This document shows positions 22,413 to 26,552 of a stretch of 44,666 nucleotides of DNA, in pieces. A program made the position numbers and the translations under genes. How positions within the stretch are numbered: position 1 is the stretch's first letter; each line of letters starts with the position of its first letter. A model generated the notes under the pieces. That model worked only from the letters and a program-made list of their open reading frames with translations, had not been told where the DNA came from and did not search any database. Origin of the DNA: Candidatus Anoxychlamydiales bacterium. Its GTDB lineage: Bacteria; Chlamydiota; Chlamydiia; Chlamydiales; SM23-39. The stretch lies in NCBI GenBank assembly GCA_011064875.1, contig JAAKFV010000003.1, positions 1-44,666 on the forward strand. Direction: 5' to 3'.

Positions 22413-23162
22413 TTATCTTTTTTTTCCTTTCAAATAATCATAGACTACTTTTCCATAAGCTAGTGTCAAATCGGAGACAAAATGAACAGCTGAAACGACT
22501 TCTAGTACGGGTAAATCAGCAACAGGTGCCAATGAGTGAGGATGAAGCTCTAAAGATGCTGGACCTGTCCAAGCATCTTTAATTTTAATATTTTTAGTAT
22601 GATATTCAACTAGCTCACAAATCTTTAATTTACCATTAACATCCGGAATAATTTTAAGTAAAAATTGAGGCTCATTCATAGCTTTTAATATAGTTTTTTT
22701 ATCTATTTCTTTATGTTTATAGCCCATTGTTCCTGTCGCTATTCTTACAGAACCATAATCTAAAGTACCCAAAAGAGTATCTTTTTCTATCTTCAAGGTT
22801 GGATAGGCAAGTTTTTTTGGAAATCCCCAAATCTCTCTACCTCCTGATATTGGAGATTCTAAGTCTAAATACATCGAATGAACATAGCCTCCTTTTTTTC
22901 CTTTATATGTTATTGGAATAACTTGGCCAGATTCTGTATAACTTCCAAAACCTGAAGAATCTGGCATTTTTATAAATTCATATTTAACTAAAGGCTCTTT
23001 TACTTGAAGTGGCTCTGGAACAATCTCTTTTAAAGCATCGAGATCTGTTTTATATGTGATTATTAGATATTCTCTATCAACAAACTTATATGGTCCTTTT
23101 GAATAGCTAGGAGATGTTATTGGCATAGCATAAGCATTTTTTATAATGTCTTTTTCTTTCAT
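22413..23162 (-). CDS. adc: Acetoacetate decarboxylase
   Basis: 'AMP.TSP', 'F.DREY', '[10 protein letters not shown]', Schiff-base motif '[10 protein letters not shown]', 'AWTGP..L.L'. Confidence 0.93.
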
Positions 23163-24358
23163 TATTTTTTATGCTCCTTATATAGATCAAAGGTGTGCTT
23201 AGCTATCATTATCTCTTCATCTGTAGGAATCACATAAACAAAAACTTTTGAGTTATCTTTGCTAATTTTTTCAGCCTTTTTTTTGCATTTATTATTTTTA
23301 TTCAAATCTAGATCTACACCAAGCCAAGACATTCTTTTTGAGACCATCTCTCTGATTTCAGAAGAATTCTCTCCAATGCCTCCTGTAAAAACAAAACCAT
23401 CTAATCCTTGAAGCTCAGCTGCTAAAGACCCTGCGAAAAGTGATATTCTATGCACAAATATATCTACAGCTAGTTTAGCATTTGGATCTGAGCTTTTTAT
23501 AAGCTTTGCCATATCCGCACTAATACCAGATACCCCTAAAAGACCTGAATCTTTATAAAACAGCTTCTGAACTTTATCAGCAGACCATCCTAGCTGATCC
23601 ATTAAATATACACCTAAATATGGATCTACATCGCCAGGGCGAGTGGCCATTGGAAGTCCTCCCATAGATGTGAGACCAATAGATGTTGCTAAACTCTTTA
23701 AATTTTCAATAGCGCACATTGTAGATCCACTCCCTAAATGCGCTACAATTATTTTCTTTTTAGCCTCTTTTTCATCCATATAATTTGGCAACTGAGATGC
23801 TATATACTCATATGAAAGACCATGAAATCCATATCTTCTTATACCGAGCTCCGTTAACGATTTTGGAAGAGCGTAGCTCTGAGAGATTTTATCGCAAGTA
23901 GAGTGAAAAGCAGAATCAAAAGTAGCTACTTGAAAAAGATCTTCAAATTCCTCTTTAAAAAAAAGATATCCATTTAAGTTATATGGTTGATGAAGAGGGG
24001 AAAATGGAATTAAAGTTTTTAGATATGCTAGAGCTTTATCATCAAAAACAACTGATTTTTCAAAATTGCCACCATGAACAACTCTATGTCCTGCTGCTAT
24101 TATCTTAAGATTTTTCTTTTGAGCCCAATCTAAAATAAAATGTAAAACTAATCTAACATAAGCTCTTGTATCCCCTTCTAATTTTAAATCTTCGTCAATT
24201 TCTACATCACCTGTAACTTTTGTTATTTTTATATGTGGCTTTGTTAAAAGATTGGAAACTGAACCTAAAAACTCTCTTTTCATCTTACCCAGAGATATAG
24301 AAAAAATAGAAAATTTTATAGAAGAAGATCCGGTATTTAAAACAATTAAACTTTCCAT
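23162..24358 (-). CDS. ackA: Acetate/short-chain acyl kinase (AckA family) with divergent acyl pocket
   Basis: 'NTGSSSIK', 'GHRVVHGG', 'PLHQP', 'YGFHGLS', 'HLGSG', 'FTGGIGEN', 'PTDEE'. Confidence 0.9.
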
Positions 24359-24359
24359 T

Positions 24360-25538
24360 TTATCTCTCTACTGCCATAGCAATTCCCATACCACCGCCAA
24401 TACACAGGGCAGCTAAACCTTTTTTGGAGTCCCTTTTTATCATTTCATAGAGAAGAGTGATTAAAATTCTAGCGCCAGATGCCCCTATTGGATGACCTAG
24501 TGCTATCGCTCCTCCATTTACGTTTACAATATTTGGATCAAAACCCATCTCTTTATTTATTGCAATTGAAGGAGCTGCAAAAGCTTCATTAATCTCGAGC
24601 AAATCTAAATCTTTAATTTCCCATTTAGCTTTTTCTAAACATTTCTTTATCGTTGAAATAGGGCCTATTCCCATGTATTTAGGATCTACTCCCAAGCTCG
24701 CTACTGCTTTAATCTTTGCTATTGGTTTTAGCCCGAGCTTTTTTGCTTTTTTTGCGCTCATAATAATTACTATTGCAGCTGCATCATTTAAACCAGATGA
24801 GTTGCCAGCTGTAACTGTTCCATTATCTTTAAAAGCTGTAGGGAGTTTTGAAAGACCTTCTAGAGTAGTATCAAATCTTGGATACTCATCTTGATCAAAA
24901 ACAGTAGGATCTTTTTTTCTTTGAGGCACTTGTATAGGAACTATTTCCTCTTTAAATTTACCCTCTTCAATTGCTTTTTTAGCTCTCATCTGAGACTGAA
25001 GTGCAAAAGAGTCTTGCTCTTTTCTCGAAACATCATATTTTTCAGCTACATTCTCTGCTGTAATTCCCATATGATAATGATTAAAAGCATCAAAAAGTCC
25101 ATCTTTGATCATAGAATCTGTAAGTTTCCAATCCCCCATACGCTTGCCCCATCTTGAACCTAAAAGAACATGGGGAGAGAGTGACATATTTTCTTGACCT
25201 CCAGCTATTATAACATCCGCATTTCCAAGTAATATTTCATTAACACCAAGCTCTATAGCTTTAAGCCCAGATCCACATACTTTATTAATAGTAAATGCGG
25301 CAATATCATGAGAGAGCCCAGCTTCTATTAAAGTTTGACGAGCTGGATTTTGCCCTACACCTGCTGTTAAAACCTGACCTAAAATAACTTCATCTATAGT
25401 ATTTGGATCTATTTTTGTTTTTTTTAATAGCTCTTTGATAACTTTTGATCCTAAAGTTGAAGCTGGCATCTCTTTTAGAGTTCCTAAAAACTTTCCTATT
25501 GCAGTTCTGCCAGCTGCTACTATTACAACTTCATCCAT
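24360..25538 (-). CDS. atoB: Acetyl-CoA C-acetyltransferase (biosynthetic thiolase)
   Basis: 'NKVCGSG', 'NEAF', 'GHPIGASG', 'CIGGGMG'. Confidence 0.93.
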
Positions 25539-25546
25539 TTTTCATC

Positions 25547-26476
25547 TCACTTGTTTTGAATATTTTCATAATATAGTTTAGCAAATACGCAAGAGAGTGC
25601 TCTTTCTTTCGCTGTAGTATTTCTACTATTTATTAAAACAGGCACCTTAGCGCCTAAAGCTAAACTACCGCACTCAGCCTTTGAAAAAAGCTCTAATTGT
25701 TTTACAGCAATATTGCTAGCATCTAGATTTGGGAAAAGAGCGATATCAACATCGCCAGCTACTTTAGAAGGAAAATTTTTATCATCTGCAATTTTTTTAG
25801 AAAAAGCAATATCAAAAGATAAAGGCCCCTCTAATATTACATCTTTAAAAATTCCCTCTTTTGCCATATCTACAAGTGCTTTAGCATCCATAGTAGATAT
25901 TATCTCTTCATTTACTTTTTCAATACAGGATAAAATTGCAATTTTTGGCTTTTCAATACCAATCGATCTAGCTACATCTATAGCATTTAACAAAATATCT
26001 ACCTTCGTTTTTAGATTCGGTAAAATGTTGATTCCCACATCTGTATAAATTAAAGTTTTTTTATAAAAGGGGGTGTCACAAATATAACAATTACTGATCC
26101 TTCTATTAGCTCTAATTCCTGTATCTTTAGATAGTACTGCCTTGAGCAGTATGCTAGTATCTAATGAGCCTTTTAAAATAGCTTTTGCTCTGTTTTCTTT
26201 AACAAGCTCAACGGCTTTTTTAGCCGCCTCTTTCATATCTAAAACATCTATAACTTCATATTGAGATAGATCTTTATTTATGTTTTTAGCGATCTTTTCT
26301 AACTCTTTTTTCGGTCCTATGATAATCGGATCAACAAGATTCATTTCATGAGCTAAAATAGCACCCTTCAAAGCCTCATCATTTAAAGGATAAACAGATG
26401 CTATAGGAAGTTTTTTAGAGATTTTTAAAGCTCTTTCAACAAATTTTTGATTCTTTTCTTGGTATTTTTCTGACAT
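25547..26476 (-). CDS. ptb: Phosphate acyltransferase, phosphate butyryltransferase (Ptb)-like
   Basis: 'ILKGSLDT..LLKAVL', 'TD.GINI.P', 'GPLSFD.A', 'S.VAGDVD', 'GAKVP...SR'; short 309-aa Ptb-type form. Confidence 0.82.
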   Translation of the reverse strand: MSEKYQEKNQKFVERALKISKKLPIASVYPLNDEALKGAILAHEMNLVDPIIIGPKKELEKIAKNINKDLSQYEVIDVLDMKEAAKKAVELVKENRAKAILKGSLDTSILLKAVLSKDTGIRANRRISNCYICDTPFYKKTLIYTDVGINILPNLKTKVDILLNAIDVARSIGIEKPKIAILSCIEKVNEEIISTMDAKALVDMAKEGIFKDVILEGPLSFDIAFSKKIADDKNFPSKVAGDVDIALFPNLDASNIAVKQLELFSKAECGSLALGAKVPVLINSRNTTAKERALSCVFAKLYYENIQNK

Positions 26477-26523
26477 TATTTATCTTCCTTTAAGAGTTCT
26501 TTTTTCATCTTCTTTTAATCGTC

Positions 26524-26552
26524 ATTAAAAAAGATAAAAATAAAATTGTCAA
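26524..26552 (-). promoter_or_regulatory. sigma70/66 promoter for the ptb-thiolase-ackA-adc operon
   Basis: Minus strand TTGACA(26552-26547)-17nt-TTTAAT(26529-26524). Confidence 0.6.

Follow-up and report, generated by a model that had tools for sequence, protein, structure and literature searches.

PMC5343299 describes natural acetone production as a trait confined largely to Clostridium and dependent on CtfAB, with the genes ctfA and ctfB lying together with adc in the clostridial sol operons. A different way of releasing acetoacetate has been engineered: in the Ptb-Buk route (Tschaplinski & Simpson 2019, as outlined in PMC10880515, which cites it), acetoacetyl-CoA is converted to acetoacetyl-phosphate and then to acetoacetate and ATP. 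The window analysed here, a stretch of 44,666 nucleotides from an uncultured anaerobic chlamydia (Candidatus Anoxychlamydiales) of marine sediment, carries on its minus strand a run of genes for a Ptb-like phosphotransacylase, a thiolase, an AckA-family kinase and an acetoacetate decarboxylase, in this order:

26607..29336, minus strand: ADP-forming acyl-CoA synthetase-like domains fused to GNAT (ACD-GNAT), 909 aa; neighbour outside the conserved unit
26524..26552, minus strand: promoter-like TTGACA-17-TTTAAT, exact match, 47 nt before the start codon of the ptb-like gene
25547..26476, minus strand: Ptb-like phosphate acyltransferase, 309 aa, PF01515 (PTA_PTB) 8.9e-38; putative acetoacetyl-CoA + Pi -> acetoacetyl-phosphate + CoA
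24360..25538, minus strand: acetyl-CoA C-acetyltransferase (thiolase), 392 aa, Thiolase_N 2.1e-102, Thiolase_C 3.3e-49; 2 acetyl-CoA -> acetoacetyl-CoA
23162..24358, minus strand: acetate/propionate-family acyl kinase, 398 aa, PF00871 (Acetate_kinase) 2.3e-105; putative acetoacetyl-phosphate + ADP -> acetoacetate + ATP
22413..23162, minus strand: acetoacetate decarboxylase (Adc), 249 aa, PF06314 (ADC) 4.4e-87; acetoacetate -> acetone + CO2

The four genes are tightly linked: the intergenic distances read off the sequence are 8 bp, 1 bp and then a 1-bp overlap (TAATG), which, together with the ORF coordinates, bears out the spacing (8, 1 and -1 bp) given in the first-pass annotation, and the gene junctions are spanned by contigs from two runs of another study. 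The operon had also been credited with a promoter of its own. The motif TTGACA-N17-TTTAAT is indeed present upstream of ptb; it occurs once in the window (0.06 expected) and at least once in 6 of 100 shuffles, but these count statistics are post hoc, the pattern having been picked only after it was noticed, and a general promoter scan of positions 21900-29600 yielded 30 sites against 34.6 +/- 5.7 in shuffles, that is, no enrichment of promoter-like sites; for both reasons the promoter role is not upheld.

The four genes may constitute a fermentative unit that would turn two acetyl-CoA into acetone and CO2 with a gain of one ATP and with no CoA-transferase, a proposal to which we give an even chance. 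Its sole basis is which genes are present and how they are arranged; from this we infer the acyl specificity of the second and third steps, the way the flux runs and the final product, acetone. Pyruvate:ferredoxin oxidoreductase (PFO), which is encoded in the genome, would supply the acetyl-CoA; the thiolase would condense two acetyl-CoA to acetoacetyl-CoA, the Ptb-like enzyme would swap CoA for phosphate to give acetoacetyl-phosphate, the AckA-family kinase would transfer the phosphate to ADP, releasing acetoacetate and ATP, and Adc would convert acetoacetate to acetone, pulling the unfavourable condensation. The Ptb-like enzyme and the kinase may take acetyl-CoA and acetate as well. On general thermodynamic grounds, saving the ATP leaves the unfavourable thiolase condensation little driving force.

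With the clostridial ThlA-CtfAB-Adc pathway the proposed route shares a thiolase and a true Adc, in an anaerobe that makes acetyl-CoA via PFO. Unlike the clostridial pathway, it has a phosphotransacylase and a kinase in the place of the CoA-transferase, and it would form ATP directly, re-assimilating no acid. The proposed chemistry is identical to that of the engineered Ptb-Buk route; however, the engineered route employs promiscuous clostridial enzymes, whereas the chlamydial genes form a natural cluster that encodes an AckA-family kinase in place of Buk and a Ptb scoring under the Ptb equivalog cut-offs.

Identity of the four enzymes

The Ptb-like protein exceeds the cut-off of PRK08190 (NCBIfam; 322.3 bits, cut-off 282), matching only the C-terminal half of that model, and stays below those of the Ptb equivalog TIGR02706 (242.3 versus 410.5), of PRK05805 (247.2 versus 399) and of PRK11890 (310.5 versus 413). 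Its top solved relative is the PTB of C. acetobutylicum (7vg9, 2e-51). The name ptb used in the first-pass annotation therefore stands in the sense of Ptb-like, and not in the strict sense of the Ptb equivalogs. A phosphotransacetylase of the Pta-equivalog type was considered and ruled out, TIGR00651 giving 85.8 bits (cut-off 311.2) and the Pta structures matching at 2.3e-14 or weaker; PRK09653 gave 78.1 bits (cut-off 310). Judged by these scores, the phosphotransacylase is Ptb-like, not Pta-like; it is the one PTA_PTB protein in the genome to which the window belongs.

The biosynthetic thiolase and the true Adc, both present as in the clostridial acetone pathway, score well above the respective cut-offs (TIGR01930, 485.4 bits versus 240.55; NF002614, 426.5 bits versus 150). 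The alignment of the thiolase with solved thiolases spans the entire protein (8gqj, 9.4e-158); the top matches are the acetoacetyl-CoA thiolases 8gqj, 4o99, 4wyr and 1dlu, and the Cys/His/Cys motifs of the enzyme, NKVCGSG (C88), GHPIGASG and LCIGGG, are identical; it is the sole true thiolase in each of five cluster genomes. Adc (solved Adc 3bgt, 3.9e-106) carries the motifs R30-E31-Y32, T76-E77-S78-G79-Q80 and F114-P115-K116-K117, and R30, E77 and the FPKK lysines K116 and K117 are retained when it is aligned to 3bgt and 3c8w. These residues presumably play the active-site roles assigned to them in the C. acetobutylicum and C. violaceum structures. The catalytic motifs of both enzymes, reported earlier as intact, are confirmed as such by alignment to 3bgt and 8gqj.

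The kinase lies above the cut-off of TIGR00016 (349.5 bits versus 293.4) and below that of PRK07058 (367.5 versus 486), and its catalytic motifs are intact (N8, R92, D148, H179, R240 and the E-rich C-terminal motif). What had been called an acyl kinase is, by its model scores, a member of the AckA family and not of the Buk family, the Buk models returning 45.8-59.6 bits. The butyrate kinase identity is excluded by TIGR02707 (45.8 versus 289.1) and by a match to the solved Buk2 at merely 6e-9.

Phyletic distribution and alternative routes

The same four-gene cluster recurs in three genera. In genus g1 (G000-G004) the order is ptb-thl-ack-adc and the proteins are 76-92% identical; the order is kept in K940_chlam_1 (G044; 73-82% identity); and in G011 it is altered to adc-ptb-thl-ack (57-65% identity), with gaps of 11 bp and 1 bp followed by an overlap of 1 bp. 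Since the cluster is kept in all three genera, including the one where it is reordered, the notion that the four genes act as one unit is supported by comparative genomics. That the linkage outlasts gene rearrangement counts in favor of the pathway. The phyletic pattern is common as well: among the 61 genomes of the family sample, true Ptb (PTA_PTB at E<1e-30) occurs in four and true thiolase in the identical four, and among the 401 genomes (212 genera) of the phylum sample, Ptb occurs in six, each a cluster bearer, so that Ptb, thiolase and the cluster kinase lineage follow one pattern, as the counts support.

Adc itself is not rare in the phylum, being found above the cut-off in 17 of the 401 Chlamydiota genomes; outside the cluster lineages it mostly adjoins a Bdh-like SDR. 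Such an SDR stands beside Adc in G019 and in eight of nine further chlamydial Adc loci (six of these SDRs are 74-83% identical to that of G019, two are at 35%), and Bdh-Adc pairing is seen in 58 of 80 loci of the closest Adc relatives. The Adc of this pair is 62-68% identical to the cluster Adc; the difference is that acetoacetate would be derived from acetyl-CoA in the proposed route and from 3-hydroxybutyrate in the Bdh-Adc pair.

The first-pass annotation had noted the lack of a CoA-transferase, an acetoacetyl-CoA reductase, a 3-hydroxybutyrate dehydrogenase and a PHA synthase in the window; for the CoA-transferase this extends to the whole genome (1.58 Mb, 93.95% complete). The ctfAB/scoAB type of CoA-transferase (CoA_trans, PF01144) was found neither in the window nor elsewhere in this genome, nor in any other of the six cluster genomes searched (G000 and five further); AcetylCoA_hydro (PF02550), CoA_transf_3 (PF02515) and HMG-CoA lyase (HMGL-like) were each found in none of five cluster genomes. 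Hence, unlike in Clostridium, no CoA-transferase of three families is found in five to six cluster genomes, all of them MAGs of 86-94% completeness, in which "not found" does not equal "absent". No real Hbd was found in the five cluster genomes, where 3HCDH_N gave weak Rossmann-type matches only (E 3e-6 to 6e-4); no Bdh ortholog was found in the window's genome, the top SDR match being 33% identical; and tblastn searches of that genome (G000) gave no match to PhaC, DUF3141 or MaoC and only distant FabI-like ones (26-28% identity). The usual enzymes that free acetoacetate from acetoacetyl-CoA, or otherwise consume the latter, were not found in the cluster genomes, as these searches support.

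The presence of Adc in the cluster bears on a reversal of the scheme, in which acetoacetate from the host or sediment would be phosphorylated and turned into acetoacetyl-CoA, whose cleavage to two acetyl-CoA would lead to two acetate and two ATP, a net gain of one ATP, with Adc clearing only the excess. The kinase, Ptb and thiolase steps are all reversible in known relatives, chlamydiae rely on host metabolites, and the last ATP-forming step could come from the ACD fusion. Yet Adc, which stays linked to the other three genes in two gene orders, would destroy the very substrate of this scheme, and no data point to a supply of acetoacetate, so we regard such uptake as very improbable.

Acetate formation and the origin of the Ptb-kinase pair

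The six cluster kinases that were compared (three of them within the 61-genome sample) share 61-90% identity among themselves but only 33-42% with 12 other chlamydial Acks; in the kinase tree they form one clade (support 100/100) apart from those 12, nested in the proteobacterial PRK07058-type subfamily (support 95/89). Beyond the chlamydial clade itself and the group immediately sister to it, the closest kin of both enzymes belong to a proteobacterial phaC/DUF3141-(maoC-)pta-ackA-fabI cluster. With the kinases of this type the chlamydial kinase shares the PLHQP and GFHGLSYEY motifs and the lack of the pocket Pro; unlike that cluster, the chlamydial locus has no MaoC fusion, DUF3141, PhaC or FabI-like neighbor. 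Of 80 metagenome loci that carry distant relatives of the cluster kinase, 54 have a Ptb-like gene immediately before the kinase gene, whereas the chlamydial operon has the thiolase between the two, a comparison that we count in favor of the pathway. FabI-like (28), DUF3141 (18), MaoC fusion (12) and PhaC (4) genes also occur in these loci; thiolase is seen in two and Adc in none of the 80. A review equates the proteobacterial pta/ackA subfamily members with the S. meliloti ORF-pta-ack-fabI operon. That the proteobacterial relatives of the Ptb-like enzyme reside in PHA-type, C4-related clusters counts for the pathway. In the study of the S. meliloti operon, the enzyme activities were reportedly measured with acetyl substrates.

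Of the acetate pocket as defined in Methanosarcina ACK, the kinase retains V94, L122 and F178 (three of four residues) and has Ser231 in place of Pro, with the residue numbering mapped by motif. Each of the 120 subfamily proteins listed (one being the window's own, with Ser) has Ala, Ser, Gly or Val at the Pro position, and the replacement is therefore not specific to the cluster. According to the ACK paper cited, it is the Val of the Methanosarcina pocket that limits the substrate chain length. Its retention here, and the pta/ackA naming of the proteobacterial kin, count against the pathway, as does the possibility that a 4HBT-family protein or an ACD domain could remove CoA instead.

These features agree with the published assignment of the PTA and ACK of Anoxychlamydiales to an acetate/ATP route (Stairs 2020 and Koestlbacher 2021, in the passages concerned): the Ptb-like enzyme and the kinase would simply convert acetyl-CoA via acetyl-phosphate to acetate and ATP, and thiolase and Adc would form a side branch where an unlinked thioesterase removes CoA and acetone is an ATP-less overflow product. 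A 4HBT-family protein of 165-173 aa is indeed encoded in five of five cluster genomes; however, 57 of the 61 family genomes have this generic protein, and it shows no linkage to the cluster. Furthermore, the phosphotransacylase is much nearer to Ptb than to Pta, and the chlamydial pair, while sharing the superfamilies PF01515 and PF00871 with Pta-AckA, differs from it in that the thiolase gene is inserted between ptb and ack. PFO is present in 18 of the 61 family genomes, and among these 18, Ack or Ptb is found only in the four cluster bearers; the other 14 gave no match to Ptb, Ack or thiolase, and all 14 possess the ACD-GNAT fusion. An acetate role thus fails to explain why Ptb and Ack occur only alongside thiolase and Adc, and we consider it unlikely. 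For the same reason, Ptb-Ack, as judged from gene content, is not needed for acetate here and is not the generic acetate route of the group, contrary to the publications.

The ACD-GNAT fusion, found in 46 of the 61 family genomes and in 18 of 18 PFO-bearing ones, is a candidate for the generic enzyme that would convert acetyl-CoA to acetate and ATP, and it offers a rival CoA-removing step for the acetone route: its ACD domain could convert acetoacetyl-CoA, ADP and Pi to acetoacetate and ATP, leaving acetyl units to Ptb and Ack. The fusion retains the phospho-His loop KSHTGALAG of the ADP-forming ligase 8wzu, a loop that the protein acetyltransferases 9it0 and 9isq lack; 8wzu, matched at 6.7e-143, is a 4-hydroxybutyrate-CoA ligase and acts on a C4 substrate. 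In genus g1 the gene adjoins the cluster directly upstream on the same strand, and no terminator-like site was found between it and ptb in the scan of 21900-29600. However, it is separated from the cluster by a 690-aa ORF in K940_chlam_1 and lies on another contig in G011, most of the family genomes that carry it have no thiolase or Adc, and this reading does not account for the strict association of Ptb and Ack with thiolase; we rate this alternative as distinctly unlikely. In that case, the acetone route would still be CoA-transferase-free and ATP-yielding, by way of a different enzyme.

Place of the proposed pathway in anaerobic metabolism

Taken together, the proposed pathway and the ancestry of its enzymes allow a broader reading, which we hold tentatively, at slightly less than an even chance. 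In anaerobic chlamydiae, acetyl-CoA derived from pyruvate would be fermented to acetone and CO2 through the first native route via acetoacetyl-phosphate, with ATP formed from acetoacetyl-CoA by substrate-level phosphorylation; a thiolase would have been inserted into a Ptb-Ack module of the PHA-linked type that was obtained by horizontal transfer, with Adc added; the "acetate" genes of Anoxychlamydiales in the literature would be those of the acetone pathway; and ACD-GNAT would be the real acetate/ATP enzyme. In keeping with the first-pass annotation, the literature searched gave no earlier account of a native operon of this kind or of acetone as a product of Chlamydiota, and acetoacetyl-phosphate appears there in engineered or modelling contexts only.

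If the pathway exists, natural metabolism would gain a new substrate-level phosphorylation reaction, one that saves the energy of the thioester as ATP, the published map of energy metabolism in Anoxychlamydiales would change, and biotechnology would have a natural, co-evolved enzyme pair for ATP-positive acetone synthesis, to date engineered only with the promiscuous Ptb-Buk. The Anoxychlamydiales also figure in arguments on the origin of anaerobic metabolism in eukaryotes.

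The four-gene operon and the proposed route to acetone

The source genome of the window (G000, 1.58 Mb in 107 contigs, 93.95% complete; the window is its contig C31) carries four consecutive minus-strand ORFs, arranged head to tail, the assignments of which follow from the reading frames and profile matches, with an upstream gene assigned by its domain matches:

26607-29336, minus strand: fusion of ADP-forming acyl-CoA synthetase domains with GNAT (ACD-GNAT), 909 aa
25547-26476, minus strand: PTA_PTB-family protein (ptb), 309 aa
24360-25538, minus strand: thiolase (thl), 392 aa
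23162-24358, minus strand: acetate-kinase-family protein (ack), 398 aa
22413-23162, minus strand: acetoacetate decarboxylase (adc), 249 aa

Read directly from the sequence, the four operon genes are separated by an 8-bp gap, a 1-bp gap and a 1-bp overlap, exactly as the first-pass annotation had it, and a purine-rich stretch precedes each of the four start codons. The TTGACA-17-TTTAAT motif, which that annotation took for the promoter of the operon, is indeed present at 26524-26552; its status as the operon's own promoter is unproven, since promoter-like sites are no commoner around the operon than in shuffled sequence (a scan that is uninformative in such AT-rich DNA) and the sequence scan showed no terminator-like site between the upstream gene and the operon. 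Short Logan contigs from two DNA runs of another study cover all 30 bins of the interval 20000-30000 and run across three gene junctions: adc/kinase, kinase/thiolase and thiolase/ptb. In 22001-26000, the operon has a G+C content of 0.32-0.34, slightly higher than most of the window (0.25-0.32), as would fit either conserved enzyme genes or a foreign origin.

As judged from its sequence, the operon Adc is a true acetoacetate decarboxylase: the NF002614 model gives it 426.5 bits (cut-off 150), and the lysines of the FPKK motif are conserved in the alignment with the enzyme of C. violaceum (3bgt, 3.9e-106). The Cys/His/Cys motifs of the thiolase, which groups with acetoacetyl-CoA thiolases, are identical to those of the solved thiolases with which it was aligned; thus, the catalytic motifs of both enzymes are intact, as had been claimed. 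By its scores, the phosphotransacylase is to be classed as Ptb-like and not as Pta-like. Among solved structures it is closest to the phosphotransbutyrylase of C. acetobutylicum (CaPTB, 2e-51), with Pta structures at 2e-14 or weaker; it scores 85.8 with the Pta equivalog model (cut-off 311.2) and 242.3, also below the cut-off (410.5), with the Ptb equivalog. The sole model that it passes is PRK08190 (322.3 vs 282), where it matches the half that represents the phosphotransacylase in a [quoted passage not shown]. Six of nine conserved CaPTB residues, the Ser-Arg pair included, are identical in the Ptb-like enzyme, as mapped by hand onto the alignment of structural relatives with an assumed 20-residue tag offset; the passages of the CaPTB paper that were searched name no acyl-binding residues. 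The profile scores place the operon kinase in the acetate/propionate family, not with Buk.

In the proposed route, the thiolase would convert two acetyl-CoA into acetoacetyl-CoA, the Ptb-like enzyme would turn the latter into acetoacetyl-phosphate, the kinase would form acetoacetate and ATP, and Adc would yield acetone and CO2. The thiolase and Adc steps follow from well-supported family membership; that the Ptb-like enzyme and the kinase would act on acetoacetyl substrates, we infer from gene linkage, from the phyletic pattern and from the fact that no alternative was found. Identical chemistry is proposed for an engineered Ptb-Buk in PMC10880515.

Conservation and phyletic distribution of the cluster

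The search of genomes for the same four-gene cluster, as suggested in the first-pass annotation, located it in three genera. The four remaining species of the genus keep the gene order of the window, with proteins 76-92% identical, the cluster being divided over separate contigs in two of them (G002 and G004). The genome K940_chlam_1 shows the same order at 73-82% identity, and a member of the third genus (G011) has the altered order adc-ptb-thl-ack, at 57-65% identity and again with tight spacing. Thus, the four genes are conserved and move as a unit.

In a sample of 61 genomes of the GTDB family, a true PTA_PTB protein (E<1e-30) and a true thiolase (E<=1e-30) occur in the same four genomes; ten further PTA_PTB matches, at 1e-6 to 4e-4 and in frames of 283-392 aa, are presumably PlsX-like proteins. 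Since an Ack of any kind is found in 22/61, 18 genomes of the family possess an Ack but no Pta of the PTA_PTB family. In a search of 401 genomes from 212 genera of the phylum, the Ptb of the window has matches with E<=1e-20 in six, and each of these six bears the cluster. Six kinases from cluster genomes were compared, three of these from the 61-genome sample; they are 61-90% identical among themselves and only 33-42% identical to 12 other chlamydial Acks. In the maximum-likelihood tree the cluster kinases form one clade (100/100 support) nested in a subfamily otherwise drawn from other phyla, apart from the other chlamydial Acks.

The flanks of the cluster vary. In G002 (contig C156, 1-3100), adc is followed by about 2.5 kb that codes for two proteins, one of 548 aa, repeat-rich and signal-like at its N-terminus, the other of 189 aa. 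After these, the final 47 codons of adc occur again, an arrangement suggestive of an insertion with duplication of the adc 3' end. The K940_chlam_1 locus (L021) contains two ORFs absent from the window: one of 690 aa (4440-6512), lacking a Pfam match, between the ACD-GNAT gene and ptb, and one of 692 aa (11695-13773), with weak protein-kinase matches below Pfam's cut-off, downstream of adc.

Acetoacetate or acetate as the substrate

A CoA-transferase, originally noted as missing from the window, was not found in the searched genomes that carry the cluster either (PF01144 in 0/6, PF02550 and PF02515 each in 0/5). As to acetoacetyl-CoA reductase, 3-hydroxybutyrate dehydrogenase (Bdh) and PHA synthase, the five cluster genomes searched gave no true 3-hydroxyacyl-CoA dehydrogenase, only weak Rossmann-type 3HCDH_N matches (5/5), and in G000 no Bdh ortholog, PhaC or DUF3141 was found; a 3-hydroxybutyrate/PHB route was rejected on these grounds. 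The HMG-CoA route was rejected as well, with HMGL-like proteins in 0/5 cluster genomes, as was isopropanol as the end product: in a search for Zn-ADH, there was no match in G000 and one over the cut-off in only 1/5 genomes of the genus. Each cluster genome has one thiolase. According to these gene searches, acetoacetyl-CoA made by the thiolase has no visible fate, and Adc no visible source of acetoacetate, except removal of CoA from acetoacetyl-CoA.

Several points count against the proposed route. The members of the kinase and phosphotransacylase subfamilies carry the names AckA and Pta, and all six cluster kinases, by motif mapping, keep Val94, Leu122 and Phe178 and have Ser231 in place of Pro, positions that we equate by motif with pocket residues of the Methanosarcina ACK. 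The acetate pocket of that enzyme comprises Val93, Leu122, Phe179 and Pro232, and the length of the substrate is reported to be limited by Val93 (PMC5517563). The pocket Pro is kept in 12 other chlamydial Acks; its loss is common to all 120 subfamily proteins listed and is, therefore, not an adaptation specific to the cluster. The main texts of Stairs 2020 and Koestlbacher 2021 read the chlamydial genes as an acetate route and make no mention of acetoacetate or acetone, nor does the former mention thiolase. A 4HBT-family protein is present in 5/5 cluster genomes; it is generic, being found in 57/61 genomes of the family.

For acetate itself, these anaerobes may have another enzyme. Pyruvate:ferredoxin oxidoreductase (PFO) is encoded in 18/61 family genomes, and among these 18 a Ptb or Ack of any kind occurs only in the four cluster bearers. 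The ACD-GNAT fusion (~910 aa) is found in 18/18 PFO-bearing genomes and 46/61 overall; the copy in the window retains the phospho-histidine loop SHTGALAG, which the active ligase 8wzu has and which is missing from the protein acetyltransferases 9it0 and 9isq. Given this distribution and the retained loop, the fusion may be the generic acetate/ATP enzyme, more than a Pat-like regulator, in which case Ptb-Ack would be an accessory confined to genomes with thiolase and Adc.

Gene neighborhoods elsewhere

No paper on acetoacetate decarboxylase in chlamydiae was found by title, and a single work, on engineering, on acetoacetyl-phosphate or acetoacetate kinase chemistry, in literature that excluded most subscription journals and patents. 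The CoA-transferase-free cluster is not described in the literature searched, and its use of acetoacetyl substrates is a candidate function.

Among the best 80 of 567 confirmed Adc loci from 185,579 species genomes, Ptb, thiolase or kinase lies near Adc only in three Anoxychlamydiales loci, and a Bdh-like short-chain dehydrogenase (SDR) lies within 2.5 kb of Adc in 58/80, mostly proteobacterial. In chlamydial lineages other than the cluster bearers, Adc is the direct neighbor of a Bdh-like SDR (L014, G019:C4 9319-10848; L233-L240), the pair being present in G019, a chlamydial genome outside the cluster lineages, and in 8/9 further loci checked. The G019 Adc has FPKT for FPKK, the second lysine being replaced.

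The 80 metagenome kinase loci listed, all encoding distant relatives (39-52% identity), have a Ptb-like gene directly upstream of the kinase in 54 cases. Their neighbors further include a FabI-like gene (28 loci), DUF3141 (18), a MaoC fusion (12) and PhaC (four), with thiolase nearby in 2/80 and Adc in 0/80. The DUF3141/PhaC-(MaoC-)Ptb-like-Ack-like-FabI-like cluster is widespread (L148, L173, L202 and 77 other metagenome loci listed). It is read in the literature as acetate metabolism, and a review equates the phaC-pta-ack-fabI organisation in Burkholderia with the ORF-pta-ack-fabI operon of S. meliloti. Judged by its make-up, this cluster may serve a route that starts from PHA-derived C4 acyl-CoA and conserves ATP. 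Enzyme activities with acetyl substrates were reportedly measured for S. meliloti pta-ackA by Summers et al. in 1999. Considering the neighbors of the kinase relatives and the organisation described in the review, the chlamydial unit looks like a phaC-pta-ack-fabI-type Ptb-Ack module that took up a thiolase by insertion and gained Adc.
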